Assembly (NCBI GenBank): GCA_051294905.1
Contig: CM119372.1
Span: 31,746,001-31,810,000, forward strand
DNA: 64,000 bases
Direction of reading: 5' to 3'
Source of the DNA: Botryllus schlosseri
Taxonomy: Eukaryota
Within the stretch, counting starts at the first letter, position 1. The number at the start of each line of letters is the position of its first letter. The position numbers and the translations under genes are program-made. This document shows, in pieces, positions 19,643 to 54,301 of this stretch. The notes below the pieces were generated by a model. It saw nothing but the letters and a program-made list of their open reading frames with translations, was not told the DNA's origin and did no database searches.

Positions 19643-20035
19643 AGTAGTAGTATAGATCGCTCGTGATGTGGCAGGGGCTCTTATGGGCGGGGTGGTGACG
19701 CGCCTGAAAACCGGGGGTGGTGATGCGCCTTTTTAGACCCCCCTTGCGGCGGTGATGCGCCATGTGTTCTTATGGGTGCGGTCGTGATTCGCCTTTTCGG
19801 GTATAGGCTGCGGCGGTGACGCGCCTGAAAACCCGGGGTGGTGACTTGCCTTTTTTGCTATAGGCGGTGGCGGTGATGCGCCATGTATTCTTACGCGATA
19901 TGTGGTGACTCGCCATGTGTTCTTATGGGTGCGGTCGTGATTCGCACTTTCAACCATCTCTCGCGCGGTGTTGAATAGTCACCAACAATAACCGCACAAA
20001 CGGAAACGTGGCTTGCAAGAGGATTAAGCAGTGCG
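19643..20035 (+). repeat. Left terminal inverted repeat (about 393 bp), GC-rich, with about 10 GGTGAYGCGCC-like iterons
   Basis: Reverse complement of 49965-50539; one mismatch seen in the outer ~225 bp. Confidence 0.95.
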
Positions 20036-21670
20036 ACCTATATTCCGAATGACCTGCGCGCTGAATTGTTGCCCATACAGCTGTGTGCTACTATCGATTA
20101 TTACACTAGACCAGTCAGTGTGAAATAGTTTGATCGTAAATTATGATATATGATGTCGTAGTTTAGTCGTGTCAAATGACCGATCGTGTTCTCTTTCCTC
20201 GCTATTGATTGCTACCTGAATAATACTTTCGGCTTATTCGCTGTTTCGCACCTACAGAATAGTCTGCTGTTCACAGTCGCAACAAGAATCACAAGTATAC
20301 ACATTATACATTCATTTATTACTCTGAAATCAAACTCTTCACAAAAGCACGTACAATCGTATCATTCACTTTTTTATCATCGCCAAAATTATCCAAGTAT
20401 TCCTCGGTTGAAAACCCTTGAGCTCTTTTTATCAAGAATGCGATAGCATGATCTCCACACACATCCGAAGTTTTACTCTGTAACTGTTTGCCAGTCACAG
20501 AAAATTCATCTGGCTCCAGGAATTGGAATATCTGAGGTTTTAGTGGTCCGAAACCTAGTGAATCATGAAAATGAGTATCAACGTGTCAATTTGTCAACTT
20601 GAAATGAAACTTACTACACAGCTCAAGTTGATTCGTATCTGAATGTGTTAATTCGGTACAATTCTAATTATTTTGAGAAATCTTTTCGTGATCTTTTGAC
20701 TCGACCAAAACCCGAATATTACTGACGCCGACTTTCAGCCACATCGAATTATTCGCACATTCCGCGCCGCTGTTGTCACACTTATAGAATCAATACCAAC
20801 TATAATTCTACAAGAATCAAGAATCACAAGTATGTACAGTTATTGTCTTTATCAACATGAAATCAAACTCCTAACAAAAACACGCATCTTATCACTAGTC
20901 AACTCTATCATGAAAATCCTCGAGTCCTTATCATCAAAAATGTTATAGCGCGGCGTCGGAATCCATTCGTGGGATGTACTAAAGGTAAATCCAGATAATC
21001 CAAAATGAAATATTTGGACTTTGACATAGTCTGAATTGAAATATATTGACAAACATGACTACCAACTTTGATCCAGTCACATTTCAAGATCATACTTTGA
21101 AACAATCCTTGAAACTTACAACTCTATTCACGACTGAGTTTTCCGTTTATCAGTTTCAGTAAATACTATCGCGATATTTTAATGTGTTACTACACACAAT
21201 AGAATCAATCAATGAAATAACACCTGTTGTAAATATTTCTAACTTGACAACCACTTGTGCATACCGCGATCAAGTTGCGACGCGATGAGTTAAATCGGGA
21301 TATTTCAATCTATTTGTCGAAACCTTGAACAAACTATCAGGTTATTTTTTGTTGTAATCAAGTGAACGGAAATAGTATTACGTCTCAACATTTTAACATC
21401 TGGAACAAGTGCAGTATATGCCCGCTTCACTCGTGTGTATACTTGACGTCATTCATCATGATTCCCCATGATCATTTAATTCAATCGCCCTCTTCTATCA
21501 CTTAAACCTTTTTTCTTCTTATTCTCTCGTTTTTCCGCACGAGCTTAAAAAATGCTGACTCAGCATTTTTTCTAGTTACGAGGTTTCAGTTTTTTCCGTT
21601 TACTCCCATTTTAGGAATTTTGTCCGTTTGCCCTTCCTATAATACTTATTTACACTCTGCCAAAAAAGCT

Positions 21671-22114
21671 TTACATCTTTTGTATGGCTGTGGGTGGTAT
21701 AGGGCCTTCGCACAACACCACTTCTTGTACGTTTTATTGCAGCAGTACGACTCCCTAATTCCTTATATCTGCTGCTTTCATGCAAATTACCACATTTCGC
21801 TTTTTTCTTATCTTCGTTATCGTTTTGGTCAAATGAATGAATCTCCTGTTCATTCGTTCAATGCCTGCGGACATTATCTGTTTTGCATTGTTTTTAGTCG
21901 TCATGTGGTACAATATCTCGTTGCCTTTATATTTACAGTGCGGAGGAGGCAACCCTTTTGTATGTCCATGGGCAGCCGCCAAACCATAGTTCGAGAATAT
22001 TACTCTATCTCACCTTTTCATGACGTTCTTGATTTCTTCAATTTTCATTTGCACCCCCATTTTCTTCTTATGACGCCGCAAATTCCTTTCCAGGGATGAT
22101 ATCTTTCCACCGAG
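21671..22114 (-). pseudogene. Tpt1/KptA-like RNA 2'-phosphotransferase domain with three in-frame stops
   Basis: One frame reads ...LRRHKKKMGVQMKIEEIKNVMKR*DRVIFSNYGLAAAHGHTKG...EILYHMTTKNNAKQIMSAGIERMNRRFIHLT...RNVVICM...RN*GVVLLQ*NVQEVVLCEGPIPPTAI. This follows the KptA motif order RAxxGHS, LYHGT, IxxxGLxxMxRxxVH, V.L...IPP..I. Confidence 0.7.
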
Positions 22115-22334
22115 TCATTACAAAGATCATGGAGACAATGAGACTCTTGAGTTCCGTCTTAACGCTTGGACTGGTCCCTTGTTGTGGTAACTTGGCCAGC
22201 CATTGGCCAATGTGAATCTCGTGATGAACGGGGTTTTGTTGTTGGTGGAGAGAGAGCGAGGTTCTTCGTTGTCAGCAGAGATTTCCTACCTATTCAATCT
22301 AACCTCTGATCTCGGCGTGTGCCCACGCCTACCG

Positions 22335-23087
22335 TCACGCCAACGGACTCAGTCGCCGCCGGGGCCCTGTTTCTGGGGAGACGTGCATCCTAAAATCCCC
22401 AGACTCCTCGTCGGACATGACCGGACGTATATCCGGTTGACCGGCAATAGCTGCTTTGTTTGAACCTTTTGGGACAGTAGTCATTACTGTGGCTGTCGTT
22501 ATGCATCTATGGGCCGAATTATTACAGGTATTCGGACAAGTGCACCCACGAGAGCATGCAGGACCAGTTTTCTCGTGCAGGTCCTCAATTTCGCCAGCGG
22601 GCATTGCACGCTCGACGTCAGCTGTAGCTGTCGCCATGCATCTATGGGCCGAAGTTCTGCAGTTCTTCGGACAAGTGCATCCGCGAGAGCCTTTGGGACC
22701 AGTTTTCTCGTGCAGGTCCTTTTTTACGCCAGCGGGCATTCCACGCTCGACGTCAGCTGTAGTGATCGCCATGCATCTATGGGCCGGATCTTCACAGTTA
22801 TCCGGACAAGTGCATCCGCGACAGTTTACAGGACCAGTTTTCTCGTGCAGGTCCTCAATTACGCCAGCGGGCATTCCACGCTCGACGTCTTCATTAACGG
22901 TGTCAGCAGGCATTCCTGTCCCGACACCAACAGTTTCCCATAGGTTCTGTGTGACATTAGTTGCGATTTTCAACTCGTCGTTCGCACCAGTGGTGATTAC
23001 CATCTCGGTACTTGCGCCAGCGGCAACGGCCAGCGGCGACGGCCAGCGTGCCGGCTCGACGCTTATTCGATTTGCAGCTTCCATCAA
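22335..23087 (-). CDS. 250-aa ORF with three 45-aa Cys/His-rich tandem repeats, in frame with the upstream protease-like segment
   Basis: 135-bp period (CTCGACGTC at 22611, 22746, 22881); each unit has the pattern HEKTGP..xRGCTCP..C...AHRC. Confidence 0.65.
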   Translation of the reverse strand: MMEAANRISVEPARWPSPLAVAAGASTEMVITTGANDELKIATNVTQNLWETVGVGTGMPADTVNEDVERGMPAGVIEDLHEKTGPVNCRGCTCPDNCEDPAHRCMAITTADVERGMPAGVKKDLHEKTGPKGSRGCTCPKNCRTSAHRCMATATADVERAMPAGEIEDLHEKTGPACSRGCTCPNTCNNSAHRCITTATVMTTVPKGSNKAAIAGQPDIRPVMSDEESGDFRMHVSPETGPRRRLSPLA

Positions 23088-23668
23088 CCCATCATCGGTT
23101 ACAGTGTCGCGAGGACTGCTTCCGACTTTGGGTACGTCCCGTTGATATTACGAGATCCCATCATGTAGCGTTACTCAAGACAACTCTTCATTTGCGTTAG
23201 ACGATGTTCTCAACCCAGTCCCTATGCTAGGTAAGTGCTGTACTTGATCAATCCATTTGAAACCAACGGTTGCAAATAGAACCGGTCGTCCGTCAAAGAC
23301 AATTATTACCAAGGAGCTAACGTGGGGGAGTCACCCATACCACATGTCTATGGGTATGGGTTGCCGCTCCTCCAAGCGTTGTGTGTGTTTGGTTTTGACG
23401 ACGTTCTTCAAATTGAGGACACATCCCGTGTCGGCCCAGATTTTCCTACCTGTTGTTGTATCAACTAAATACAAAAGTTGGCCGCCGAACCATTCCGTAA
23501 AATCTGGCTACAAAGGGTCATCTGGTGTATCAAGAAATGTAAATAGGGGCAGGGAATCATTATGTACAGTTTTTGTGTGTTGGGGTAATAAATTATCTGG
23601 GAGCTGATTTACCGGATCAATCAGCTCCCGCGAGCGATTTTCGAGAGTCGAATACTTTGCTTCAGTTC
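23088..23668 (-). pseudogene. Retroviral-type aspartic protease remnant, in the -1 frame relative to the Gag-like ORF
   Basis: Reads RKIWADTGCVLNL (DTG codons at 23424-23432)...IPIDMWYG*...VIIVFDGRPVLFATV...LPSIGTGL. Four in-frame stops at 23508, 23331, 23175 and 23148. Confidence 0.55.
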
Positions 23669-25450
23669 ATCATCCGTCCAATATGAAGTATCATATCGAA
23701 GTGGATGATCAGGGTATTGAGGTTCTGTCCAAGCCACTTGACTATTACCTCGGGATGAGTGTGCAAGCGGTAAAGATGGCTTTGTGTCACGCATATCCTT
23801 TGTTTCCAGGTTCTTAGGGCGCGTCTCTTGTTCATCCAGAAACTCGGAGTTCCAAACAAGTTGTAGCTCCTCCGCAACGTCCCGCCAGGTTTTCTCTTCT
23901 TCCCAGCCTCGCAACATCAATCTAAGCGCTTCTGGTAGTCGCTGCCGTAGATTTCGGAAAAGACGTAATCCATCCGGATTTTTCTTAATTTTACTATCCA
24001 TGTCTATTTCCAGTTGCTTCAAGGCGCTATTCAGCAGGGGTAGCGGCTCATCCTCCCAGCGATAATTTCTACGGAAATCCCCAATAATCTTTTCATCATT
24101 TACCAAACCCTGGGGATTGGATAAGGAAAGAGATTGCATCACCGATTCCCATTCTGCTTCCCCAGAATTGGTATTAAAAAAATTTCCAAGTTGGGTAGCA
24201 TGCTTGTGTCTGCCAGCCGCTCGCAATTTCTTCTGCATCGCATTAGCCAAAATAACATCCACATCCGTATTTCCGGGACCGTGGCGTATTCGTCGCATTG
24301 AATTCTCCATCCATTTTAGCAGTGGCATGTCTCCAGGGTCCATCATAAGCTGAAGCATTTCTTTTTCTGACTGGATTTTAGCCGACACATTGAGTAATGG
24401 GGCCGAAACACCAGAATACTCGTGTGGCTGTTGCTGCCGTTGTCGCCTAGTCCTTCCCCAATACTCTTTTGGAGTGGAGGTAGCGCGAGGTGTATTAGGA
24501 GAACGAGAGCTATCGGAAAGTTCCTCATCGAGAGATTCTTCCGTGGAATCCTCAGAGCTTGCACCGCCCCGTAGGGACCTTATATTATCTCTTATTTCTT
24601 GGGAAATCTGTTTCAGTCTAGCATGGAAATCGATTTCAGAACTTTCTGCATCAGATTGTTCCTCGCCTGGACTATGAAAGGTCACCCGTCGGGAAGCGCC
24701 GTCCGCATTTATACGGGATTCTGTCTCCGAATTTCGGCGTTCTTGCCAACCCTGATATCCCCTATATTTACTCGAGGAACTTTTTGCAGGTTCCGTCCTT
24801 GTTCCCCCCGTTGCTGGGTTTCCATCTTTTTGTTTGGCGCGTGCACCACTGCCCACATGGAAACATGGAGTCGTCCCTATTCGAGAGTCTGGCAATGAGG
24901 TCGAATCAGAACGTGGTAGCTTAGGATAGACGGCCGTTACAGTATGACAATCCAGACCCTTGCGAACCGTCATCGTTGGTCCTTGTTGTACGTTACTAGA
25001 CTGCTGCTCAACGAGAGGAACGTAAGCCGGAGGGTCATATTCTGGTGCAGTTGGAGCTACTGTCAAAACGGGAGATTGGATGCTATCTCGTGTAGCCTGT
25101 GCATGCGACTTTCCGAGCTCAAATTCTGACGTAAGGATGTCATTCAGCACGTCGGTGGAGACCTTCCCGCTAACTTTTGTTGTGGCATCGCAAACAGCTT
25201 TGAGGTCCGCTTGAGCTTTTCGAACCTCTTTCTTTGCCTTTTCTAACCCTTTCATGGTCTCCGGTAGAGCTGTCTTTACTTCTTTTAATAGCTCCGTTTG
25301 TTCAGCCACATCTTTAGCAAGTTGTCTTTCTTGTCGCCGTACATCTTCATGGCGTTTTTGTGTTGCTTTAAGCAAGGTAATGCCCTGTTTAAGTTCATTT
25401 GTCGCTTCTGACGACCTTTTCCTTTTAAATGCTTTCAATATTCTTCGCAT
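23621..25450 (-). CDS. 609-aa Gag-like protein: N-terminal coiled coil, PTAP/PPxY late motifs, Ser-rich linker, helical C-terminal domain
   Basis: Long intact ORF; PTAPEYDPPAY at 25022-25054; position directly upstream of a DTG protease-like frame. No CCHC knuckle. The Gag identity is an inference. Confidence 0.6.
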   Translation of the reverse strand: MRRILKAFKRKRSSEATNELKQGITLLKATQKRHEDVRRQERQLAKDVAEQTELLKEVKTALPETMKGLEKAKKEVRKAQADLKAVCDATTKVSGKVSTDVLNDILTSEFELGKSHAQATRDSIQSPVLTVAPTAPEYDPPAYVPLVEQQSSNVQQGPTMTVRKGLDCHTVTAVYPKLPRSDSTSLPDSRIGTTPCFHVGSGARAKQKDGNPATGGTRTEPAKSSSSKYRGYQGWQERRNSETESRINADGASRRVTFHSPGEEQSDAESSEIDFHARLKQISQEIRDNIRSLRGGASSEDSTEESLDEELSDSSRSPNTPRATSTPKEYWGRTRRQRQQQPHEYSGVSAPLLNVSAKIQSEKEMLQLMMDPGDMPLLKWMENSMRRIRHGPGNTDVDVILANAMQKKLRAAGRHKHATQLGNFFNTNSGEAEWESVMQSLSLSNPQGLVNDEKIIGDFRRNYRWEDEPLPLLNSALKQLEIDMDSKIKKNPDGLRLFRNLRQRLPEALRLMLRGWEEEKTWRDVAEELQLVWNSEFLDEQETRPKNLETKDMRDTKPSLPLAHSSRGNSQVAWTEPQYPDHPLRYDTSYWTDDELKQSIRLSKIARGS

Positions 25451-25458
25451 AGTACTCT

Positions 25459-25827
25459 CTATTGACTAGAGGAAGTACTGTTGACAAATATTAGATCAGG
25501 CAAGGATGCGTTGAAAAAGACTGTAGGTCCTGGCGGCGTATTCGTGGCTTTGACGTAAGCAGTGGGTTCGCTGCTATTTGATCCCAAAAATACGTTCAAC
25601 AGATTAGAAAACGCTCCAGGCGATACGTGCAGATAAATTGCTGCCAATATTATCAGGAGAGATACAGACGAGGAAAGCAAGGATACAACAAGTACAAGTT
25701 TTACGATGGTCGTCTTTGAAAGCATCGATCGGTCAACGTCTGAACACCGGAAGTATGCCCCGTACTGGCCACCAATTTTGTTTTTATAGTGCAGCTCCAC
25801 AACGATTGTTATGCGAGTAGTCCACAC
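25459..25827 (-). CDS. Putative small single-pass membrane protein
   Basis: Hydrophobic run IVKLVLVVSLLSSSVSLLIILAAIYL followed by NSS, NAS and NST sequons; stops 8 nt before the Gag-like ATG. Confidence 0.4.
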   Translation of the reverse strand: MWTTRITIVVELHYKNKIGGQYGAYFRCSDVDRSMLSKTTIVKLVLVVSLLSSSVSLLIILAAIYLHVSPGAFSNLLNVFLGSNSSEPTAYVKATNTPPGPTVFFNASLPDLIFVNSTSSSQ

Positions 25828-25996
25828 TTGTTCGGGATACTTCGTAGGACAAAGTTGACACTATTTGCTCTCTTGTGTAGTACTGACGACGTTCGTAGAT
25901 CTGTAGATGTTGATTTGAGATTTTTCAAAGTCGTAAATGTTGATTGAAGTATTCCGTAGTTGTAATATTGTCTTGTTTCCAAACAGCCAATGACCA

Positions 25997-26302
25997 TTAG
26001 GTCCAAAGTTCTAAGCTAGCCCTCGATACAAGTAATCTGAAACCCTTAATACAACCAAATACTCCAATCATTATCAACCAATTATGGACACAAATATAGG
26101 GCGCTTCTATAAATATCGTCCCGTACGGGTCTATCAGAATACGAGTAAAAGCTAGGCCTATAAATATGTCATGCATGATTGATAACTTTTCAATACTCCA
26201 AGGTTGGTTTACACATATAAATGTGAAGGCCTTTCCTGCCTCGACACACAAGCATATGCAATATACAAGAAACATGCCAATAGATGTTACAAAAAAATAC
26301 AC
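25997..26302 (-). CDS. Putative small multi-pass membrane protein
   Basis: Three hydrophobic segments; overlaps the next co-oriented ORF (25809-26006). Confidence 0.3.
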   Translation of the reverse strand: MYFFVTSIGMFLVYCICLCVEAGKAFTFICVNQPWSIEKLSIMHDIFIGLAFTRILIDPYGTIFIEAPYICVHNWLIMIGVFGCIKGFRLLVSRASLELWT

Positions 26303-27010
26303 TCAGAGTTCAAGTTGACCAACTTGCAGACTCGTGTATTATAAGAGTTCTCCAGTCTTCCAGCTGCAGGTATCGAACCGAAATCAGTCCAGAAAGCGAC
26401 CCCTTGTTGAGTACTTTACGTCATAAAGTACTTTCGTGTCGATTCGGGGATCAGGCATTCCAACAGTAGGCGGCGTTTGTTGAGGGTTCGTCGTAGGCAG
26501 AGATTCCGAATGCAATATCTCTATACTCTTGGCTCTTTTCATCTTTAGTTCATCGAATTCATGGAGCTATTCCAGCACATTTCATTTGGCTTTTCCATTA
26601 CTGTATACTTGTAACTTCGGCTAGCAGTCAATCCCATTTTATTGCACTGCTTTATTTCTGTATACTTTGCAACTGTGGCAAGCAGCCGATCCAATCATTA
26701 TAAGGTCAAGAGCTTCCAGGGGTACATGCGAACATCACCCTTCAATGCCGAAAGACTTTAGTACCTCCCGCAATCAATCGTCAATATACTGTTTTGTGGA
26801 TATAGTATGATACTGGATGCTTCGTTTTGGGCTGTGTTTCGAGAGTGCTGGACTGCTGGTGGCTTTACATTGGTAGAGCCAGAAATTAGCCAACACTAGA
26901 GGACACATTCACGATGTCTGCATTGGTAGTCATTGGATATTACAACTGAATGTACAATTCATGTGGGCACCATACATGGCATGGATATGCAATATGCACA
27001 CACACATATA

Positions 27011-27217
27011 TTACATATACTTCAGCTCACTGCAAAAGTTCGCATACATGGAAAAATGATGGCGCCATTTTCGGTAAAGCAACCTGATGGTAAAGCTAAC
27101 TACTAACATGCATACGACAATTCCAGATAAGCACAAAGTGCTATCAACACAGCGGCCAAATGTACAAAGCATATTCGACTGTTCATTCATTAACCCATGC
27201 GCAAATTCGAAATACAA
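27011..27217 (-). CDS. Putative small membrane protein
   Basis: LCLSGIVVCMLVVSFTI followed by a basic RLLYRKWR stop-transfer-like segment. Confidence 0.25.
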   Translation of the reverse strand: MYFEFAHGLMNEQSNMLCTFGRCVDSTLCLSGIVVCMLVVSFTIRLLYRKWRHHFSMYANFCSELKYM

Positions 27218-27947
27218 AATGGCGGCATTTTTGTTAACTCAACACGATAGTGAGTATCGGCAATTATAGAGTTCGAACACGCTCTGCAAATTTAGCGTTG
27301 ACGCAATCGATCTCATGAATCGAAAGCGTGAACCCTTGGACTCAATTTTCGACACATCAATTTCGCAAAAAAGATGTGTGTACTTTTCTATTGTATATAA
27401 GAATTTTATTTTAATTTTATTGAGAGTGATTTAGGGTGATTGTATCAGTTGCTTATGCAACGGCAATTCATCTTACTATTGACTCATATGGGCAGTCAGG
27501 TGACTACAAAAGTCACCGCTAATCTTTTCAGTTACTACGGCTTTATTCATAATCTAACATTATGATGCCTTACCTTAACAATTTGAAGGGACAATGTAGG
27601 CATTCTCTGAAATATAAGATTTGCAGTGCCTAGGTCAGAGCTTAAATCTACGACCTTTTACGGTGTTTAGCTGCAATCCATGAAGTGCGGATTTATGCGT
27701 ATGAAAACCGGTGACACTGCGATTCGAGTATGCAAAGGCACGAACTAACACTGGCGTTTCCACGCTACGACGTGAAATTCATCAGAAAATAATCTCAGGA
27801 ATACATGGTAGCACTAAATGGACACATTTGTGTAACACAATAGTCACCGAATGACCTCGGTGCTCCGCGAGCACTTGGATACATTGCGATTATCGCAATA
27901 CAGACTCCTCGGATGCATTGCCGTCCAGTTTAAAATTGTATTAAACT

Positions 27948-28687
27948 TTACCGGAATAGTAGCCTATAGCGGCGACGGGGTTCAGATATAGGTTTGAATA
28001 TATTTTCAGTTCGAGTCGCTATTTGTTCTTCCTTAAGATTTTTAAATATTGCCATCCCGTAAAGTTTATTATGACGTCCTACCGACCAACTAGCAAATAT
28101 CAAATTATCCTCATCTGCTCGTTGGCATGACGTTATCGATAGGTACGTCTCTTTACTGATTGTATCGTTCATTTGTTGCATCATGTGTCGTCTTATGAGT
28201 TCGTACATTATTATACGAGCGTTCACTTTTTGTCGAGAGTCGATTTCATACAATATAACGCTTGTGATAAGTTTTCATCTCGTATGCCACTGATAGTCTT
28301 TTCTATATTCCAAAGACTTGTGGTACAGAAGGTGACCCCATTTTGTTCTCAATTTTACTTACATATAAGTAAATACACGACATTTAAAGCGCGATATGAG
28401 AAAATAACATTGACGTCTATTTCAGCTCAGTGCCCCTACATTAATTTAATCAAAAGATGCCTAGCGCAAAACTCATGTAAATCTTTGTTATCTATATCAA
28501 TGAATACGTATAACTAAAACTGCCTCCAGCAATTGTTCCATCATTTCGATTATTTCGGAGGGATCAATTGATTGAGACAGCTCCCGTCACACAGATTTAG
28601 GTACCATGCCCATATTTTCTTTAAAATTAGCAATGCTTCACCTAAGGGAGCTTTAAGAATGGTACCAATACTATAGTCAAGAGTCAT
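27948..28687 (-). pseudogene. Decayed coding-like segment of unknown function
   Basis: ATG at 28687, protein-like stretches broken by stops, then a 101-aa ORF in another frame; co-oriented with the cassette. Confidence 0.25.
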
Positions 28688-38200: not shown

Positions 38201-38610
38201 CACTTGGAAATCTATTTTTTCCCAGAGTAAGAAACCTTTTTCACTTGGAAATTTATTTTTTCCCTGGGTAACAAACCTTTTTCACTTGGAAATCTATTTT
38301 TCCCTGGGTAACAAACCTTTTTCACTTGGAAATATATTTTTCCCCGGGTAACAAACCTTTTTCGCTTGGAAATCTATTTTTCCCTGGGTTACAAACCTTT
38401 TTCACTTGGAAATATATTTTTCCCCGGGTAACAAACCTTTTTCCCTGAGCAACAAACCATTTTCACTTGGTGGTCCGTCGTTTACCCGAGTAAAAATATC
38501 ATTTTCCTTTGGGGATCTGGCGTTTACCCAGTGTAACAATACATCAATACATTTTCTCTTGGTCATCTAGCTTTTCCTAGAGTAACAAAACCATTTTCAT
38601 TTTGAAATCT
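35283..38610 (+). repeat. Inner part of the left palindrome arm
   Basis: Reverse complement of 38815-39460 plus 45569-48240. ORF 36847..37092(+) and ORF 46415..46639(-) are near-identical. Confidence 0.95.
38198..38470 (+). repeat. ~41-bp tandem array (about 6 good copies plus degenerate flanking units)
   Basis: Unit TTTCACTTGGAAATCTATTTTTCCCTGGGTAACAAACCTT. Confidence 0.95.
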
Positions 38611-38817
38611 GACAAACACACCTGACAATTTGATATTTTTGTATATTGTTACAACGGATAGCGACAAAATATACACCAACAACAACTCCAATACATTTGT
38701 GTAATCGCATATTCACTTGTGCTGATGCAACCCATCAAAATCATCGGTTACCCACATGCAATGTGTTGTTGTACATCGACGTTTATGTTTTTGGAAAATT
38801 GGACAATAGGCTTCGAT

Positions 38818-39140
38818 ATTTCCAAGTGAAAAAGGTTTGTTACCCAGGGAAAAAATAGATTTCCAAGTGAAAAAGGTTTCTTACTCTGGGAAAAAATATA
38901 TTTCCAAGTGAAAAAGGTTTGTTACCCAGGGAAAAAATAGATTTCCAAGTGAAAAAGGTTTCTTACTCTGAGAAAAAATATATTTCCAAGTGAAAAAGGT
39001 TTGTTACCCAGAGAAAAAGTATATTTCCAAGTGAAAAAGGTGTGTTATCCAGGGAAAAAATAGATTTCCAAGTAAAAAGGGGTTTGTTATCCAGGGCAAA
39101 AATAGATTTCCAAGTGAAAAGGGGTTTGTTACATTGGGTA
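38818..39140 (-). repeat. Inverted ~41-bp tandem array (about 8 copies)
   Basis: TCCAAGTGAAAAA recurs every 41 bp from 38821; reverse complement of the left array. Confidence 0.95.
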
Positions 39141-39836
39141 AACGATAAATCTCCAGAGGACAATGGTATTTTAGTGAGGTAACGGTGGACCACCAAGTGA
39201 AAATGATAATTTTACACAGGTAAACGTCAGTTGTCCAAACCAGAATGATATTTTACTTGGGTAGGTATCTTGTGTTCAACGCTGGTTGTGTGATTGGTCT
39301 TGTTAAATGTAGTTACCGAGTTGTACAATTATGAAGGGGTGGAAAATGAAATTGCTATTATGATCGTCAGAAGATTGTTGTATGTAGATTTGACAGTAAC
39401 CCTATCATTCGCATATGACAAACACAATCATGGTCATTAACTAACTTGCTCGGTCTAGATCAGTGGTTCCCAACCTGTGGTACGCGTACCACTAGTGGTA
39501 CGCGAAGGTCTTCCAGGTGGTACGCGAATAGATTCTGTTTTTAGTTCAGGCGGGGTTGAGTCGAAGTTTTTTTGAAGTCGTCGTCGTGGTCAGTTACACC
39601 GAAAAAACGAACCCCACTCGTTGCGCCCATGCACGACTTTCGATGCGATGTGAGCAAACGTATGCCACGCATCGACCAGCTCGTGCAGTGGTTCCCAACC
39701 TTTCTCATCTCGTGAACCCCTTGGCCAAAATGCAAGTCAAGATTTTCCCCTAGTAAAAATCAGCCTAATGAATAGGAAAGGCCGTTTTTTCCCCGCGAAC
39801 ACACCTGTTGATTGAAGAATGAGACGGGTGCTACAG

Positions 39837-42129: not shown

Positions 42130-43409
42130 TGCTACAGAGTATTTGTGTCAAGGAGGGCCGCGACAATACTCCCAATTAACACAATTGTGGAAGGCTTCGC
42201 TAACAAGACACACTAACACAAACACACGCGATTACACACCCTTTCCGTAGCGAACTACGTCCGGTAGCACGCAACACATAGATCTGGCCGCGTTACGTAA
42301 CGGTTAACGCAAGACTTATTCATTTATGTTTTGCAGGCCACCAGGCACCAATCGCTATCCAATCACTGTGAAAATCAGCATGCCTAAATTTACTAGTGGC
42401 GTGAATGTTTTTTTTTAAATTTATGTATGAATTTGGTCAATAATATTGAAACTTCCGTAATCCATATGTAGCATAAACGAAAGCAGATTTCCTGCAGGAT
42501 CTGATGGAATGGTATCTTCGGAAATTTCGGACCCTAATGTGCCGCCCAGTTAAGACTATTAATGAAGTTTCGGATGGGTTCACATTACATTGTTGAGGCA
42601 TGTTGTTATTTCATGAACTCCGGTAAAGATTGTCGCTAGGCTGCTCGAAAGATTCCCAATTCGTAGTTCTTGACTATGGGTGATGTGACCTTCTCGTCGG
42701 GTCGCATTTGTAGCGCTGGGCTCAGATTTCAAGGGAGAGAGAGAGAGAGAGAGTCTTTATTTTCATCCAACCAAAATACATAACAAACGGCAGTGATGGT
42801 GGTACAGAAAATATGCATGCACAGTATTCGGTATGAGATAGGAATAAGCGATAAGACCGTGGAGGTCATCTAGTTTGATCACACCAGCATGAAACAGGTA
42901 CACTTGACTCTGAACAGTCTGGCTGTAAAAATGTTTAGTTAAAAAAGGAAAATAGAATAAAAATTAAACGATGGTAGCAAATGATCAATGAAGCAATGTC
43001 TGGGCGAGGTAGGGCAACAGTGTTAGTAGTATAACGACAGGAGGTGATCAAGTAGGTCTTTTTTGAATCTATTATAAGTAGGGCGATTTTTTTTTTGACA
43101 TGTCAAAAAAAGTCAAAATTAAGTCAAAATTGTAGCGTTAGGTCAAAATTTGTCAAAATTGTTTACAAAGTCAAACATTTTTTGACCTCTGAATTTCGTT
43201 TGTATCGTAGATTTTGCGCTGTCGGTGAACTTATCACTTGATATTTTACAGCTTGTAGCCTACTTTATCGGCCTAATGTTGTAAACGACCCATCGTCTGC
43301 TCATTGTGAATCATAAACGATCAAATGAAACAAATAGTGACATGGTTTTATGGTCAACGTACCGCAATATCCTAACTGAAGCAAAACTGCTTGGACATTG
43401 CATGATTCT

Positions 43410-43607
43410 TATATCAAGAAGCGCAAGCTGAAAAATTGTGATATAGACAACATTGTCAGAATGAAGCAACACGGTGTGTCACCAGCAGTGTGCACACAAC
43501 TTCAGTGTTGTCAGCCAACAACCGCTGCTGTTTAACGTTCTTTCTCCATTCTTGGCAAGCTACTTAGTAAGGACAAACACTTTCTACCCGAAAATGTAGG
43601 AAAGTAA
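43410..43607 (+). pseudogene. hAT transposase C-terminal dimerisation-domain remnant
   Basis: QPTTAAV*RSFSILGKLLSKDKHFLPEN matches the PxTSxxxERSFS motif with the Glu mutated to a stop. Confidence 0.7.
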
Positions 43608-43755
43608 GCTATCTTTCGTTCGTTGTACTGCAACAAATTTTAATTATTTCCACCAGAATACGTAATGGAACTACTGGAATTCTTCATAGGGCCAGATTTC
43701 GTTAAAATACTAGTTTTTTCGTGGGCTTCTTGGAGGTACAGAACTTCAATATACA

Positions 43756-44138
43756 ATTGAATAGTATATTCATATTGAAATAAACCCGAATATTTTCGGC
43801 TGACACTCGTCAGGGGTAATCGTCAGCAACTAGTAGAGAATTGGAAAGAACATGGTATCTGAACAATCGTATCACAAAATATGACGTCACCAGCATGAAA
43901 GAGAAAGCGTTCAATGTACTATTTTTAGGTGGTACACGAACTCCTTTTGTTGACAGAGTTTTGGTTGGTGTATTTTGATAAAAGTCGACTCCAAGTCACA
44001 CAAATGACGTCATATTTTGTGATACGATTGATGATATACCATGTTCTTTCCAATTCTCTACTAGTTGCTGACGATTACCCCTGACGAGTGTCAGCCGAAA
44101 ATATTCCGGTTCATTTCAATATGAATATACTATTCAAT
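43756..44138. mobile_element. Penelope-like inverted pseudo-LTR pair with two hammerhead motifs
   Basis: Inverted ends ATTGAATAGTATATTCATATTGAAAT; minus strand encodes HLCDLESTFIKIHQPKLCQQKEFVYHLKI; hammerhead cores at 43784-43817 (-) and 44077-44110 (+). Confidence 0.75.
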
Positions 44139-45568
44139 AGTTTTTTTCATGTAAAAATTTGCTAGTTTTTGTGCCCAAAACGTTTTTTCGGGCCAATCTA
44201 CTTTGTAAGGACAGACAGTTCCAACCAGAAATGAAGATAAGTAGTACAATTTTGACATTATGTGCGAAAACACCTAATTTGCATACGTAAGGTCAAAATT
44301 TGGTCAAATTTCAGTTTTTTTTAGGTCAAAAAAAGTCAAAATTTAGATTTTTTAGGTCAAAATCTTCCGTTTTTTAGGTCAAAAAAATCGCCCTAATTAT
44401 AAGGCAATTCACGGATATGTGGTTGTAATGCATTCCATATGATAGGTCCCGAGTAGTCCCAAGGGCAGGAATATTCGGAGCCGCGCAGTCATATCAATAT
44501 CGACAGTTTCGGTAAATATGTGTCGGTCATTTTGGATTCTAAGTGTTATCACCGTCGATCTTTCTCGAAGCACACTTTTCGGATTCGCAGATTTCGCGAA
44601 ACGTGTATATGTCGAGATGTGTCCTAGAGCGTGGATATGTATGTACCTGATGGTCCCGCACTAGTCTACTGCACAACTCTAGGCTGCTGCATCCATACGG
44701 CCTCAAGCGAGGCTAATAAAATACCGTCCTTTCATAATTGCGAATACAGATTTACTCAATTCAGTAAAAGTAACTCAAGCGTATTTAATGCGTTATTTAA
44801 TTCATTTTCAGTTTTCCAGTGACACTAAATCGCGCGAAGCGCACAATGAAAAATTTCTGGTTAAATGAATTTGCCCCAAAATAGTCTATTCATTGCCCAA
44901 TAAACAAAATTACTGAAGAATTGGAGGCATGGCCCCTTCTGCCCTCCGGCTAACAAATATAGCACAATAAATTATAGTTCGTCACTTTCCGTTTTGGAAA
45001 CATTGCGCCAGATTTAGCTCGGGTAGATGTTCACTAAAAAAAAGCAAGTTCACTTGCGATCTCTTTGACTTGAATCGATGACGTTGGACTGTGTTGTCAC
45101 ATGAAATTTCAAATAGCATTCGAACATACTTCCAGCAGGGGAAACCAGCCAAAAGGAACATATACGCTCAGAAATAACTAGTTGACTATTTAACAGTTCG
45201 AAAATGAAGCATTTGGTAAATCCGTTACAATTCTAAAGCAAAATTCCCCCTGAAAATTACAAAATTCTCCCAAAGGGGAGAATTTTCCCCGGTTGGAAAC
45301 CAGCGAGCTAGTGGAGAATGAACAAATTGACTTCTGTTGTTTGTTGTTTTTTCATTTCTTCTTGTGTCTGGCGGTGAAAAACAATTCCATGCATCCCATC
45401 AACCCTGGTTGATAATGCCTAGTTTAATAGAATTTGTTATTACCCCTCGCATAGGTCAAATACGTGACTATGACGTCATAAATGGTAGTTGTAGGTGGTA
45501 TGCGAGCACTGCATAAATACTCGAAATGGTACGTGGGTGGAAAAAGGTTGGGAAACACTGGTCTAGAT

Positions 45569-48240
45569 CAATGCAAAAGAGATGATTCGTTTTTTGAAAC
45601 CGTAGCGAAGACCACATGTAATTCTATGCGATAGACTTCTATCTCCTTACAGTCAGTCGTGTCGTGTCCATTTTAATACGGGCCCACATGTATGACATGC
45701 ACACACTAACACCGTAAACAGAAGTCGATGATTTTGACTATTAAAAATATTTCTTGACTACAGCGGAATGTCTATGTTGTAGAAAGTAAATACTATTATG
45801 GTGTTGTGTGTTTAATGAAAGCGATTGGTTACAAGTATGTTTTGGGAAATTAAATTTATTTTTCTGTATGTGACAGTTTGCGAGGAAATGAAAATAGATT
45901 CGTGGTTTCAATTTAATTGTGACTGTGTTGTTTTAATGTACGTTTCAACAGGTAGACTTGACACTGAACAACAATTCGACCCACAAAACATATTCGTTGT
46001 ATGATTTGTTACTGGTGTGTAAAGGGTTAGGAATATTTTGAATGATAATATCTACTAGCTGTTTTGTTGTGAGAGCGATCATGTGATGACTCAGCACTTT
46101 TCGTTAGCAAAGTAGATTGATCTATGTGAAAGATGTAAGGACCGTGACTAGAAAACATATGTACTTTGTTGTTGGGGAACTGCTATGGCATTGACATAAC
46201 CCTCTGGAAGTGAGTATGCTTTTCTTTCACGAAAGTTTACGTGGTTCCGTTGTAATAAATTTGTGTTAACTAAACTCGGATGGATACCGCAATTGTGCTG
46301 GACTTACACATGGTATTCGCATACTGTGCACATATACAAACTTTTGTGTAAACAACTCTGATGTTTCTGTTAGTACTAGTTCTGTGTTGATTATTAAGAT
46401 GCATGAACACCCGTTCAGACAATAAAGTTCTTGTGATATCGAAACAGTTTGAAAGCACCACCAATCATTGTACAGGTTTGTAGCATGGGAATATTTTCAT
46501 GTGTCGTGAATATCTTTCGTATACACTTAGTATGAAATGAGATGTGTGGAACAATAATTAGTGTCGTACAAAGTGTTGTGTTTGATTGCCTACTTTTTAT
46601 CAATGTCTTTGTGATGTTAAAAGACGGCTGAGTTTTCATTTACATTAAGCGGAGAAACTCAAGTAATAAATTTTACTCGTTTGAAAATATCGATCAATGG
46701 AGTAACAGTATCAATATGAGAGGTATATTATTTTTTTCGCGATATGCAACCAATCTTCTAAGCATAACTTGTCAAAAATTTATCGTGTCGTAGAAACACC
46801 GGTTGTTACGAATTCGAAAGAAATGTACTTCGATTATCACGATGATGGAAATTAAGATCAATGCAGTATTTCGGAGATGGATGTGTATCGTTTGGTATGT
46901 TCCCCAATCACTAAATGTCGGTTAGTTAAACGATACATTTACAAGTTTACTGAAATCTTGATTTACAAATAACAGCTTGATGATGTAAAGCTCAACCACG
47001 CAAATGTGTTCATTGCAAAGTATTTGACACAAACAAAATATCGAATGGAGGCAATCACATTGGTTTCATTTCGAGTGATTGAAAATTGTTTTCTGTTGGT
47101 CAGGTAGGACACATTTGACAAACATCGTACACATTGTTTCTTCGTGATGGTAACGACTTTCAGCGGTTTGGTTTCATGTCGGGAATTATTATTTGAGGGC
47201 TCGAGAATGATTTCAATCAATACTAGAAATGAACAACAATGCAAAATACGTTTAGCAAATAACAGTGTGGCAAGTACTTTTTCGATATTACGAGTGTTGG
47301 GCACTAGACACTTTTAGTTGAATTGGATGCATCTAACAAACATATCACGATTTACTTTTGCAATAATCAAAGTATGTGAAATGGTGCGAACGGATTAGGT
47401 ATTAATCAAGCGGCGGTATGTCAATTCACCTAGTGTGATATCTTGACACCGGATAATGTGTGAAAGTGTTTCAATTCTCACTGCTGATTACGATGATGAA
47501 GTATTGCACCGGTTATTGTTTAACAAACGAAATTGTCGTTTCATCTTTAGTCTTGGTTACTGGAAATATTTTCTGATATCCGCGATACGCAGAGTGATTT
47601 TTACCAAGGTGGACTAATTTTCCTATCAAGAACATTTCTGACATACATAGTTTTACAGCTTAATATGTTAATAACATTGGTACTGAAAAGTTTGTTGCTG
47701 TCATAACATTTACCACAACGCCGGGTCTAATTAACGCAAATAATTTAATAATAAAGTAATGATCAACTATTACAAATCTCATATGTCAAATCAATGTGTC
47801 AATCTTATGTTCACAGCATGATAACTTTGAATATAACACCATTGTTCGATTGTAAGAAATGAATCTCAACTACGTTGGTCGGACTTTCAAATCTCGTATA
47901 CTCAAACATACTATGTTAATCTCAAGTCGCCGACACTGAGAAGTAATTACTTTTGTCTTACAAAATATACCGAGTAGTAATTAGTTTGTCTTGCAGAATA
48001 TACCGCGTAGTAATTCCTCTATCTTACAGAATAGTAACGACTTTTCAAGCTGAATAAAAAAAGATGTGTAGGGATATGAATACAACCAAGCTTGTTATGG
48101 ATTTTAGGTTTTAGTGATTGTATGGATTCGTGTATGTTTGGCTGTTTTTCATACTGATACTGTTTGAGTTGGTTGGGTAAGTTACAAACGGATTTACTTG
48201 ACAATGTTTTCGTGGTTGACTCTTTGAGTATGGTAAGATG
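45569..48240 (-). repeat. Main part of the right palindrome arm
   Basis: Reverse complement of about 35275-37916, visibly high identity with scattered substitutions and indels. Confidence 0.95.
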
Positions 48241-49964
48241 GTGAGATGTCGAGACGTAATACTATTTCCGTACACTCAATTACAACAAAACATAACCTGC
48301 ATTCAAATAAGCCGTAAGCTACAAGTGGATTTAAAACTTGATGCTGTTTTGTGGTTGACTCAAGTCAGTAGTCATGTTGGTGTTGATTTCGGGAATGATC
48401 ATGACGAGTTGGTCGGGTAAATTAGGTAATGTGGTTGTAACTATAACCGTAAAGAGATGCTGACATCCCAATATCTTTTACGCTGTCGTATATGGATTCA
48501 ATTGTGATAATTTAATTCTCAGTTATTGTTCTGACACTCAAATCTCGTATACTCAAAATATAATATGCCCAAGTCAAATCGTATATGCACCGATTAGTAA
48601 ATACTCTGTCTTACAGAATAGTATAACGACCTTTACAGTTGGATAAAAATTATCGGTCCTATGAATACAACCAGATGAATTAATTCAAGTTTGCGAGTTG
48701 TACTGATATAGCCAAGTAAGTGAAAACTAGATTTTAAACACTTGTTAATGTTGTGAATAATTCTTTTGAGTATGGTAAGATGTTAAAATGTCTCTTTGAC
48801 AAACGGAAAGCTGGATCGGGAATAGAGTTGTAATGTTACATTACTTGTTTCAAATCAATGTGTGTATAATATCGAAACGGGACTGTGGGGAAGTTGCTAG
48901 TCATGTTTGTCAATCCTATTTCAATGCACACTACGCCAAAGTCAAAATAATCGGTTTCGGATTAGGATTTTACAATTATTTCACACCTTTTTGAATAAGC
49001 GTCAACTTCACAGAGGATTAGGGTTGGGTCAGAAATAAGTGAAAATTTGTCGGTATTCGAATCACCGGCTACGCCGGTTCTATGGTAAACTAATTACTAA
49101 AGTAACACCATGCGACTGATTACTAGATTTAGCAAACTATTTCGCACTGACTGGATTAGTGTAATAATCGATACGATAGTCCAGTATACTGTAGCACGAA
49201 ACAGCTGCACAGGAAAAAATTCAGCGCGCAGGTCATTCGAAATATAGGGCGCGCGCGTAATCCTCACAACAAGCCGTGTTCGCAAAACGGATGTAGTTAG
49301 AGGGTCGCACATATCAAAACGCAAGCGCAAACATCTGTTTTTCAAAATCACACAATGTACTGCGGTTTAGTGAATTTCCCGTCGGAAATAAGTGACAATT
49401 TGTTGCTATTCAAGTTACCCACACTGATGGTTCTGATAGTCAGTATTTATTAAATCTTACCAGTGAAATCTAGTTCTGTGACAAACTGATTACTAAAATT
49501 TCACCGCGTGAGCGATCGGTATGGCTATGACACCAAGTCGTGAAAGATGGGTATGTCCGAGACATTATCTTGTCAGTGATCGCGGGGTTTTGCAAACTAT
49601 TTCACACCTTTTTGAATAAGCGTTAACTTCACAAAGGATTACGGCTAGAACAGAAATAAGTGACAATTTGTTGGTATTCAAGTCTCGCCGGTGATGTATC
49701 TGTTATTCGGCACTTATTACACTTATCATGAAATTAGAGTGAGAACATAAAGCATCAAGTTGTTGTTTTCGAATTTTGATGTCGAGGTGATAAATTTACG
49801 CATTCAATTACAATTCAACTTCGGTTGTGTGTTGAGTGATAGATCGATATGCCTGAAGTGGTATCTTGTGAGCGATCGTAGGATTTTACAAATATTTCAC
49901 ATCTTTTTGAAGTGTTAGTTTGCGAACGCGACTATTGTTGATATTCGAATCGCCGTCTGTCGCA

Positions 49965-50539
49965 CGCACTGCTTAATCCTCTTGCAAGCCACGTTTCCGT
50001 TTGTGCGGTTATTGTTGGTGACTATTCAACACCACGCGAGAGATGGTTGAAAGTGCGAATCACGACCGCACCCATAAGAACACATGGCGCATCACCGCAG
50101 ATCCCGTAAGAATACACGACAGGCGAATCACCGCCACCGCCTATAGCAAAAAAGGCGAATCACGACCACGAGTTTTCAATACGAGTCACCGCCACAGCCT
50201 ATACCTGAAAGTACGAATCACGACCACGAGTTTTCAATACGAGTCACCGCCGCAGCCTGTACCCGAAAAGGTAACCATGCCACCGCAGCCATAAGACACA
50301 ATGGCACCATGCCACCGCCTATAGCAAAAAAGGCGAGTCACCACCCCGGGTTTTCAGGCGCGTCACCGCCGCAGCCTATACCCGAAAAGGCGAATCACGA
50401 CCGCACCCATAAGAACACATGGCGCATCACCGCCGCAAGGGGGGTCTAAAAAGGCGCATCACCACCCCCGGTTTTCAGGCGCGTCACCACCCCGCCCATA
50501 AGAGCCCCTGCCACATCACGAGCGATCTATACTACTACT
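49965..50539 (-). repeat. Right terminal inverted repeat (about 575 bp) with extra iteron units
   Basis: Matches the left TIR, plus about 180 bp of additional repeat units near 50120-50310. Confidence 0.95.
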
Positions 50540-54288: not shown

Positions 54289-54301
54289 CCTCTCCCCTCC
54301 C
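54289..54301 (-). other. Polypurine tract
   Basis: GGGAGGGGAGAGG on the minus strand abutting the 3' LTR. Confidence 0.9.

Follow-up and report, generated by a model that had tools for sequence, protein, structure and literature searches.

Positions 19643-50539 of a 64,000-nt window of Botryllus schlosseri CM119372.1 (the window being the whole stretch of DNA analysed here) are occupied by one element, the focal copy. It is very probably an integrated member of an abundant group of fold-back elements that are non-autonomous satellites of Mavericks/Polintons in the same genome, virus-like transposons that were reportedly described by Kapitonov and Jurka in 2006.

Two inverted arms in a single insertion

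In a self-comparison, the focal copy minus 21402-35282 and 39461-45568 is a colinear inverted repeat. Its inverted matches, which lie far above chance, are 229 nt at the extremities (19643-19871 against 50539-50311; 100% in a repeat search, 99.6% in BLAST), 19780-20035 against 50225-49965 (90.0%), 20005-20132 against 49280-49133 (73.8%), 20975-21245 against 48983-48718 (67.4%), 21338-21401 against 48299-48236 (87.5%) and 35278-37925 against 48240-45560 (90.7% over 2706 columns, E = 0). The centre, 37912-39465, matches itself in inverted orientation (68.9% over 1652 columns). Every match is colinear, which bears out the original prediction of an ~11-kb fold-back palindrome interrupted by two insertions. 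Therefore, the anchors noted at the time (20035-20140 with 49135-49248, and 21010-21070 with 48890-48950) and both excision joints, including that of the left join with the uninterrupted right arm at about 48223-48270, are also right.

Two details of this architecture had to be revised. The arms had been drawn around a ~200-bp spacer; they are indeed inverted, but 38611-38815 does not form a loop: it belongs to the inner left arm and lacks a pairing partner because of an asymmetric deletion at the centre. Moreover, the arms are far from uniform: they are 100% alike over the outermost 200 nt, can be aligned in patches only between 20050-21401 and 49957-48236, and are 93.6% alike over the inner 2.6 kb. 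The two insertions are real, but each of the spans given for them had included one copy of an 8-bp duplication; their proper limits are listed with the other features in Table 1. Tandem arrays are found in the arms only at 19679-19934 (the units of the left terminus), 38197-38541, 38818-39132, 47938-48033 and 50124-50488, and the remaining arm sequence is unique.

Table 1. Features of the focal copy and of its target site, in window coordinates.
Feature	Position	Strand	Remarks
Target-site duplication, left copy	19637..19642	.	ATCGGG, 6 bp
Left terminus	19643..20579	+	(AGT)3 start, ~121-nt terminal subrepeats; homologous to the right Maverick end beyond the 647-nt terminal inverted repeat
Outer left arm	20580..21401	+	C9a/C10 sub-lineage
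Nested insertion 1	21402..35274	+	13.9-kb repeated element; 8-bp duplication TAACATCT at 21394-21401 and 35275-35282
Inner left arm	35283..38822	+	Tandem array of 40-42-bp units at 38197-38541; arm terminates in the centre junction
Private centre junction	38817..38823	.	Fuses the inner left arm with the right arm's 41-bp array
Inner right arm up to insertion 2	38818..39460	-	Inverted 41-bp array at 38818-39132
Nested insertion 2	39461..45560	+	6.1 kb; inverted ends CAGTGGTTCCCAACC / CAGTGTTTCCCAACC; 8-bp duplication GTCTAGAT at 39453-39460 and 45561-45568
Right arm, uninterrupted	45569..50539	-	C15/C18/C8 sub-lineage; (ACT)3 end
Target-site duplication, right copy	50540..50545	.	ATCGGG, 6 bp

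The first bases of the focal copy are AGTAGTAGT and its last are ACTACTACT, that is (AGT)3 and (ACT)3. It is one insertion that moved as a single unit, as had been proposed: the same 6 bp flank it on both sides, and its flanks are contiguous in a paralogous uninterrupted repeat at 8156-8865, which represents the empty site. Two independent insertions, each with a duplication of its own, are contradicted by this one shared duplication and by the absence of internal termini in the self-comparison.

Assemblies are notoriously prone to errors at palindromes and high-copy repeats, and no contig spans the stretch. An assembly artefact, whether by long reads folded back into a chimera or by repeat copies wrongly joined, is nevertheless very improbable: the arms are 90-94% and not 100% alike, the two flanks share one duplication and one paralogous empty site and so belong to a single locus, both nested inserts have duplications of their own, and contigs from other samples contain arm sequence as well as the uninterrupted arm joint. 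The 21401>35283 joints in DNA contigs derive from the uninterrupted arms of other copies and carry no information on polymorphism of the locus. Differing flanks and duplications also exclude that the other copies are assembly duplicates of the focal locus, and the C25 locus was rejected as an allelic copy of it, its flanks being dissimilar and its identity 84-94%.

Nested transposons and a private centre

Both inserts are later transposon insertions nested in the focal arms and are unrelated to the fold-back element. The first 499 nt of insertion 1 match at least 39 other places from base 1 onwards (40 of 160 candidates scored). No transposase was recognised in it; Pfam gave only a Tpt1/KptA fragment at 21758-22009(-), which was also the only match when 77 more ORFs of at least 60 aa from both inserts were searched. 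A 614-aa ORF of insertion 1 reaches a best score of 0.86 in the ESM Atlas, with a Gag-like match, a lead that is not used as evidence. Insertion 2 appears hAT-like, judged by its inverted ends and 8-bp duplication, and its ORFs have no Pfam match. It contains a palindromic MITE-like piece at 43748-44146.

The centre of the focal copy is atypical for its family: a ~0.9-kb loop was lost through the private centre junction. The family's loop and ~1.4 kb of inner arm are absent at this place, and six clean loops from relatives had no match in the window. The left side of the junction, 38600-38822, recurs in 38 other arms at 99-100% identity; 38 of the 39 non-self matches end at 38822, and none crosses this point with an identity above 82%. 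The breakpoint is at arm position ~6225, against ~5927 of the C5 copy, and the junction shows possible microhomology of a few bases only. A 34-bp overlap (loose read ends 38789 and 38822) was rejected: five relatives carry this 34-mer a single time in each arm, where it is expected and nowhere else.

Maverick ends and a gene-less interior

In the available parts of the sources, (AGT)n...(ACT)n ends are a Maverick feature (PMC8097293), and together with a 6-bp duplication they are given as hallmarks of Mavericks (PMC8097293, PMC3014272). The same genome contains an intact autonomous Maverick/Polinton, C13, which encodes a 1295-aa protein-primed polB (PF03175), an rve+chromo integrase and an A32-like ATPase. 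Of 36 long matches to this polB lineage (scored: 36 of 387 candidates), 30 are free of stop codons, with identities of 91-100%; the lineage thus has many intact copies, and potentially active Maverick helpers are present. The ends of two autonomous copies were read, C13 and C7, the latter by its 3-kb ends only; their terminal inverted repeats are only 618-647 nt long (2 of 2 copies; 647 nt in C13), and the outer terminal repeat of C7 resembles that of C13 at only 79% over 87 nt.

The terminal 0.4-0.9 kb is shared with the autonomous Maverick at 91-93% identity. For the focal ends, the comparison gives 91.4% over 653 columns to the left end of C13 and 93.4% over 945 to its right end. The focal left terminus corresponds to positions 16765-15822 of C13 at 93.4% over 945 columns, and within it 20579-20322 encodes the last 86 codons of the terminal ORF of C13 (94%, tblastn). 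Such one-end-unique Maverick sequence is found in the left arm only of the focal copy. In two relatives it is present in both arms: right-end-unique sequence in both C15 arms, and left-end-unique sequence in both C9b arms.

Beyond the ends, no Maverick content was detected. When the arms beyond ~1 kb and the loops were compared to C13 by tblastn, tblastx and blastn, matches were limited to the terminal region. Pfam searches of every ORF of at least 90 aa of the focal copy gave nothing credible, and no polymerase, including PF03175, was matched in the ORFs of 19643-50539. An rve integrase is absent from the focal copy, the only rve-like matches of the window being in a Gypsy element at 54414-57464, and the polB of C13 had no tblastn match in the focal copy or the 12 relatives. 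Likewise, 37 ORFs from the arm and loop of one intact relative and the loop ORF of the relatives gave nothing in Pfam; the 91-aa loop ORF has a best score of 0.87 in the ESM Atlas, with no family.

The idea of a snap-back product of a Polinton, with an arm that maps onto one end of an autonomous element, thus stands in part. The fold-back is real, it has Polinton/Maverick ends, the outer ~1 kb of the arm matches, and two relatives carry the mark of a copy-back; the interior, however, is unrelated to C13, the remainder of the arm having neither DNA nor translated similarity to it. Since arms beyond ~1 kb and loop are unlike the C13 Maverick, the element is not simply one Polinton end copied back.

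A family of fold-back elements with matching arms

Twelve fold-back relatives were read, out of thousands of candidates, and the arms were measured in 11. A typical relative is ~13-15 kb long and consists of two gene-less arms of 6.3-6.9 kb and a ~0.9-kb loop with a small conserved ORF. The terminal 393 nt have at least 68 matches, mostly in +/- pairs (40 of 2383 candidates scored), and candidate arm matches number in the thousands. Target duplications of 6 bp flank all 13 fetched elements (11 perfect, two with one mismatch).

The same colinear arms are present in every relative read. Arm identity within a copy, per segment, is 97.8-99.98% in 10 of the 11 relatives; in the eleventh, the outer C25 copy, the arms are only 73-98.5% alike. 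Identity between different copies is only 77-98%, and a focal arm matches both arms of each relative at nearly equal identity. The relatives are mosaics of one another, yet each keeps its own two arms alike.

The fold-back thus arose neither at this locus nor in this copy: the architecture is inherited and family-wide, with thousands of candidate arm matches. This also bears on the notion that a single snap-back event, coinciding with the insertion or shortly preceding it, copied one end of an autonomous Polinton back into a lone ~11-kb palindrome. The Polinton ends, the 6-bp duplication and the 945 nt of one Maverick end in the left arm, with part of the terminal ORF, would agree with it. We give it almost no credence, considering the colinear arms of all relatives read and of the many candidate matches, an arm interior that is unrelated to C13, and focal arms that are not each other's nearest relatives.

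The focal arms belong to different sub-lineages

Judged from their sequence relationships, the left and right focal arms belong to different sub-lineages and are not copies of each other. The outer left arm shares 95% identity with either arm of C9a and of C10, but resembles the focal copy's own right arm only in patches of 67-87%. The inner left arm is 99% identical to C25 and 98% to C10 (98.1% over 35275-37191 to the C10 copy), but 95% to its own partner; the inner right arm is 97-99% identical to C18/C15/C3, but again 95% to its partner. To the C15 copy, the right arm is 98.5% identical over 47528-48949 and 97.7% over 46179-47373, and 913 nt of it are 100% identical to both arms of the C8 copy. 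The outer right arm is 96-100% identical to other copies, and its own left arm is missing among 139 matches. The expectation that the focal arms are a copy-back of each other thus fails, since each is closer to arms of other elements.

The same picture emerges from a tree of seven elements with 14 arms. The two arms of an element are sisters in five of the seven, the exceptions being the focal copy, whose right arm clusters with C15/C18 apart from its left arm, and outer C25. Forcing the focal arms together is rejected (AU p = 9.3e-6), in a test whose group was chosen after the database searches had pointed to the same result.

Arms of two sub-lineages that share identical outermost 200-229 nt argue for one of two histories: either the focal copy would have integrated as a recombinant of two co-replicating satellites, or one of its arms would have been overwritten later. 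The second history, integration with identical arms followed by ectopic gene conversion of one of them from a family member, is a serious if somewhat doubtful candidate. Thousands of donor copies are available, the duplication is intact and so are the identical outermost 200-229 nt, the 913-nt right-arm stretch fully matches another copy, and outer C25 is a second copy with unlike arms. However, the differing tract extends over several kb, with many indels, and flanks both insertions, and mosaic relatives with alike arms fit recombination before integration, followed by symmetrisation. In principle, the unlike arms could also stem from the assembly, as a mosaic of near-identical repeat copies; the available contigs are short, and none covers the whole stretch.

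Relation to known elements

The family resembles Mavericks/Polintons in its (AGT)n...(ACT)n ends, its 6-bp duplication and its terminal inverted repeats, but it lacks polB, integrase, capsid and any other recognisable gene. Moreover, the inverted repeat comprises nearly the whole element, with 6.3-6.9 kb per arm in the relatives as opposed to the 618-647 nt of the genome's autonomous Mavericks. Vertebrate Mavericks have terminal inverted repeats of 46-1447 nt in the part of the source available (PMC8097293, Barreat and Katzourakis 2021). Butterfly Polintons, as far as the accessible part of the preprint goes (bioRxiv 10.1101/2025.02.07.637071), carry gene-bearing terminal inverted repeats of ~2 kb. 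They illustrate that inverted repeats can grow inwards and duplicate the content of one end; these Polintons are, however, autonomous with a large unique core, whereas the family has non-coding arms and a ~0.9-kb loop, which is absent in the focal copy.

The whole-element inverted arms with tandem arrays, and the lack of any Maverick gene inside, are also reminiscent of a classical fold-back transposon like FB or Galileo, which would belong to another superfamily, have its transposase encoded elsewhere and have acquired its Maverick-like tips or evolved them by convergence. We consider this very improbable. The family shares up to 945 nt at 93% identity with an autonomous Maverick end, it has the (AGT)n motif and, in 13 of 13 elements, 6-bp duplications, and neither arms nor loop nor inserts yielded a transposase. 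The 9-bp target duplications of FB and the 7-bp ones of Galileo do not fit the 6 bp of the family. Drosophila FB and Galileo share with it the long inverted arms with internal tandem arrays and the dynamic, mosaic copies (PMC3573991, in the part available). Inverted arms dominate in both; FB-type arms, however, consist mainly of tandem subrepeats, whereas those of the focal copy are mostly unique sequence, and the ends of the family are common with a self-synthesising virus-like element rather than a P-like transposase element.

Adenovirus and linear plasmids provide examples of snap-back or copy-back genomes. Such defective viral genomes, as defined in the available part of PMC13506859, resemble the family in being symmetric palindromes that keep terminal origins and depend on a helper, and helper sequence unique to one end lies in both arms of two relatives, though in the focal copy only in the left arm. 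They differ from it in that the family is integrated, heritable and of high copy number, its body does not come from the C13 helper genome, and the relatives carry a conserved loop ORF of their own. The large genic palindromes of a tunicate genome, as presented in the accessible part of PMC12448946, are a different kind of structure. In full-text searches of the literature we found no description of whole-element palindromic Maverick derivatives; Kapitonov and Jurka 2006, Repbase and supplements were outside the scope of this search, so earlier descriptions may exist.

Origin and consequences

As far as shared ends and duplication length go, the Maverick integrase would mobilise the satellites in trans, and the protein-primed Maverick polymerase would replicate them. 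The palindrome most likely arose by copy-back, that is by a strand switch, at one Maverick end. The one-end-unique sequence in both arms supports this origin for two relatives, and it may apply to the whole family. The arms would probably be re-symmetrised in each replication round, either by snap-back of the displaced strand and repair or by renewed copy-back, and long perfect palindromes are likely lost fast from chromosomes. In the focal copy, a private junction removed the loop, and two unrelated transposons with 8-bp duplications landed in the arms.

Mavericks/Polintons are thought to replicate like adenoviruses; to our knowledge, this replication has never been observed directly. A bolder version of the satellite reading, which we hold to be unlikely, is that the satellites truly replicate with an active Maverick virus, the palindrome being regenerated, or proof-read via a snap-back hairpin, in each protein-primed round, and that the focal copy is a rare product from before symmetrisation. 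Its formation would go back to a strand switch, close to the central arrays, from one co-replicating satellite to a different one. Such a switch would account for arms of two lineages, for the missing loop and for the identity of the outermost ~200 nt only, which might have been made identical as by panhandle repair of the adenovirus type. Regeneration in each round would explain why the arms are 97.8-99.98% alike in 10 of 11 copies despite rampant mosaicism between copies. If true, this would be natural genomic evidence for the mode of Maverick replication.

High-copy gene-less palindromes with Maverick ends would record copy-back errors and mobilisation in trans. The focal copy shows that arms of different sub-lineages can coexist in one integrated element, and that nested insertions together with a deletion at the centre can leave such a palindrome 'defused'. 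A perfect palindrome of 13-15 kb is fragile as DNA and may give rise to long hairpin RNA, and thousands of them should therefore shape genome stability and silencing. In about 3% of one single-cell RNA run, the arms are covered at a depth of 0.1-2 at 97% likeness, a value that belongs to the multi-copy family and is not assignable to the focal copy or to a strand.

Architecture and integration of the palindrome

The element at 19643-50539 belongs to a fold-back satellite family with Maverick ends; this copy is nested, carries a centre deletion and combines arms from two sub-lineages. The original prediction had described an approximately 11-kb palindrome once two insertions are removed. An inverted-repeat search and a BLAST comparison of the window with itself confirm the fold-back arms, since the inverted matches follow one colinear order from end to end, which shows that the two proposed excisions are correct. 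In segment-wise global alignments the arms are unevenly alike. The outermost 200 nt are identical and the following 200 nt 94% identical, 20050-21401 and 49957-48236 can be aligned in patches only, and the inner 2.6 kb show 93.6% identity.

The element starts with AGTAGTAGT, ends with ACTACTACT and is bordered on both sides by the duplication ATCGGG (19637-19642 and 50540-50545). Its flanks are part of an older repeat, a paralog of which (8156-8865) is uninterrupted at the insertion site and matches both flanks contiguously with 74-76% identity. Because the flanks meet in this paralog, they represent one locus, and all 30.9 kb entered as a unit.

Features of the window element and arm-to-arm identity of its relatives
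Feature	Coordinates	Strand	Observation
Insert 1	21402-35274	+	8-bp duplication TAACATCT on each side
Insert 2	39461-45560	+	inverted ends starting CAGTG; 8-bp duplication GTCTAGAT
Inverted match	19643-19871 vs 50539-50311		229 nt; 100% (inverted-repeat search), 99.6% (BLAST)
Inverted match	19780-20035 vs 50225-49965		90.0%
Inverted match	20005-20132 vs 49280-49133		73.8%
Inverted match	20975-21245 vs 48983-48718		67.4%
Inverted match	21338-21401 vs 48299-48236		87.5%
Inverted match	35278-37925 vs 48240-45560		90.7% over 2706 columns
Self-inverted centre	37912-39465		68.9% over 1652 columns
91-aa loop ORF	L021:7839-8111	+	equivalent place in L023, L025, L030, L044, L046
C9a			99.5-99.6%
C9b			98.8-99.9%
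C12			97.8-99.7%
C5			99.4-99.8%
C6			98.7-99.5%
C14			99.7-99.9%
C6s			99.9%
C15			99.4-99.7%
C8			99.97%
C18			99.9-99.98%
C10			98.7-98.9%
C25, outer element			73-98.5% per segment

The first 499 nt of insert 1 recur in at least 39 further genomic places, in each case from base 1 (40 of 160 candidates scored). Insert 2, whose end has few relatives, carries a nested MITE-like repeat; its inverted ends and 8-bp duplication, which we take to be hAT hallmarks, are the basis on which we call it hAT-like. Pfam searches of the ORFs of both inserts detected no transposase. The sole match was a fragment of PF01885 (RNA 2'-phosphotransferase Tpt1/KptA; 21758-22009, minus strand, E 5.7e-9, 36.7 bits), which begins within the repeated terminal 499 nt of insert 1 (21402-21900), extends approximately 110 nt beyond and is possibly a captured host exon. 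Insert 1 also contains a 135-nt tandem repeat in three copies (22487-22889, within its GC-rich part, 0.49), and a single-cell RNA run covers 26072-26705 at approximately 40-fold depth on one strand; no other part of the stretch gave a strong RNA signal.

The fold-back structure is a family trait

Genome-wide matches were searched in the 496-Mb assembly that contains the window. The terminal 393 nt of the element gave 68 matches, mostly plus/minus pairs 10-30 kb apart (40 of 2383 candidates scored), and the arm segments had 2273-3459 first-look candidates each. In public contigs the word depth of the arms, which is not a copy number, exceeds that of insert 1 by orders of magnitude. Thirteen elements were fetched in pieces for comparison. 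All 13 have 6-bp duplications, 11 of them perfect and two with one mismatch, and both halves of every fold-back relative match the window arm at near-equal identity. The arms of the measured relatives are at least 97.8% alike, with the outer C25 element as the one exception. Different copies, in contrast, share 77-98% identity only, and the best partner changes by segment, indicating that the family is mosaic. Palindromy across the family, likeness of partner arms in most copies and mosaicism between copies are established.

In full-size members each arm measures 6.3-6.9 kb, and the loop, 855-933 nt long, is 88-96% identical between copies. The loop contains a 91-aa ORF, open in six out of six copies and with a pN/pS of 0.26-0.54 in all 15 pairs, for which we found neither a Pfam family nor a usable ESM Atlas match.

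Maverick ends and a possible copy-back signature

The same genome harbours an autonomous Maverick/Polinton, C13, of 16.3 kb with terminal inverted repeats of 647 nt. Its ORFs include one of 1295 aa with PF03175 (protein-primed polB), an integrase with rve and chromodomain, and an A32-like ATPase. The left end of the window element matches the left end of C13 with 91.4% identity over 653 columns, and the right end of C13 with 93.4% over 945 columns. The latter match runs approximately 300 nt beyond the inverted repeat of C13 and takes in the last 86 codons of a terminal ORF. In a second autonomous copy, of which the ends were read, the inverted repeat measures 618 nt and the subterminal regions are unique; inverted repeats are thus short in both autonomous copies read. 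The (AGT)2//(ACT)2 end motif and 6-bp duplication are given as Maverick hallmarks in a passage of PMC8097293, and the duplication together with a long inverted repeat in one of PMC3014272. It is established that the element integrated as one unit, that its ends and duplication are of Maverick type, and that helpers are present.

Among long polB matches of the C13 lineage (91-100% identity), 36 of 387 candidates were scored and 30 of these lack a stop codon; the lineage is abundant and largely intact. Ten of the 36 begin at residue ~154-159 (e.g. C11:16032125-16035538), with a weaker separate match to residues 1-80 just upstream, which is consistent with a variant whose N-terminal (terminal-protein) part has been split off. 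Two autonomous Mavericks (L048/L049 and L032/L033) have polB 97% identical and subterminal unique regions 89-95% alike, yet their outer terminal repeats match only 79% over 87 nt; the ends seem swapped or fast-evolving. The flanks of C13 (L032:285-501, L033:6766-6856) match the fold-back arm (window 36116-36338 at 89.7%), so that this helper sits inside a satellite arm.

The element had been read as a snap-back Polinton product. If one end had been copied back on itself, sequence unique to that Maverick end would be expected in both arms. Such pieces occur in C15 (right end, C13 15867-16118, ~90%) and in C9b (left end, C13 1148-1617, 94-97%), and several further copies retain diverged remnants of the right-end piece, again in both arms. 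Maverick ends, unit integration and this mark support the reading in part, but the fold-back is family-wide and the bulk of the arm is unlike C13. While the terminal 653-945 columns map onto the Polinton end, the arm interior does not: neither tblastn with all C13 ORFs nor comparison of an intact arm and the loops with C13 by tblastx and blastn gave a match outside the terminal region, and none of 37 arm ORFs of an intact relative has a Pfam family. Most of the arm can therefore not be recognised as Maverick DNA.

The window copy has lost its loop and has unlike arms

Six clean loops from relatives match nowhere in the window, and the 91-aa ORF is missing from this copy. A stretch of C15 that does match the window consists of array-bearing arm sequence. 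The left arm extends to ~6225 of the C5 arm, and the right arm resumes at ~5927, within its own 41-bp array. With queries from 38600-38980, 38 of 39 non-self matches (99-100% identity) stop exactly at 38822/38823 and the single one that crosses shows 82%; this centre joint is private to the window copy.

Identity of the left inner arm reaches 99% with a C25 arm and 98% with both C10 arms, compared to 95% with its own partner. For the right inner arm the values are 97% with both C18 arms, 99% over 984 nt with C15 and C3 arms, and 95% with its partner. The right outer arm is 96-100% identical to other copies, 913 nt of these at 100%, and the window's own left arm is absent among the 139 matches listed for it. 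A maximum-likelihood tree was built from a 985-nt segment of 14 arms from seven elements. In five elements the partner arms are sisters, but not in the window or outer C25. When the window arms are constrained as sisters, the log-likelihood falls by 120 units (AU p = 9.3e-6), in a test that was not blind, since the grouping came from earlier searches. In this copy neither arm is a copy of the other; each is nearer to arms of other elements. Each being 0-2% from another copy, with the outermost 200-229 nt identical, the 6-30% arm-to-arm difference is not simple ageing. The chance that a recombinant of two co-replicating satellites integrated as such falls just short of even; later overwriting of one arm by ectopic conversion is a more doubtful possibility, and an assembly mosaic is improbable. 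Outer C25 (L036-L039; C25:89476-119204) is a second unlike-armed copy, whose left arm hosts a complete fold-back element (C25:90771-106475) with arms 99.98% alike.

Proposed mechanism and other features of the window

The Maverick integrase probably inserts the satellites, and the protein-primed polymerase of the Maverick probably copies them. That the palindrome arose through a strand switch at one end is somewhat favoured. There is about an even chance that arm identity is maintained during replication, either through mismatch repair after the displaced, self-complementary strand snaps back or through a fresh round of copy-back, and that rapid loss of perfect palindromes from chromosomes adds to the effect by leaving mainly young copies. 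Arm divergence, the two insertions and the deletion at the centre lower the hairpin/cruciform potential of the window copy, which may, speculatively, explain its persistence.

A full-text literature search, with Kapitonov and Jurka 2006 and Repbase outside its scope, did not turn up any account of Maverick/Polinton derivatives that are palindromic over the whole element. Nearest are butterfly Polintons with ~2-kb gene-bearing inverted repeats, as outlined in part of bioRxiv 10.1101/2025.02.07.637071. A section of PMC13506859 defines copy-back and snap-back genomes, and the passages of PMC6431247 that mention fold-back elements do so in another context only.

Elsewhere, 54041-60067 (minus strand) is a Gypsy-type LTR retrotransposon with 254-nt LTRs 98.4% alike, a 1017-aa ORF with RT, RNase H and integrase and, next upstream, a 308-aa ORF with aspartyl protease. 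Two members of a family of palindromic MITE-like repeats, with 78-92% identity, lie at the window start (28-644) and inside insert 2 (43748-44146). Non-LTR retrotransposon fragments with endonuclease and reverse-transcriptase domains occupy 9311-9760 and 60585-62281, and inverted and direct repeats, 59-68% alike, fill 62795-64000 and continue past the window end.
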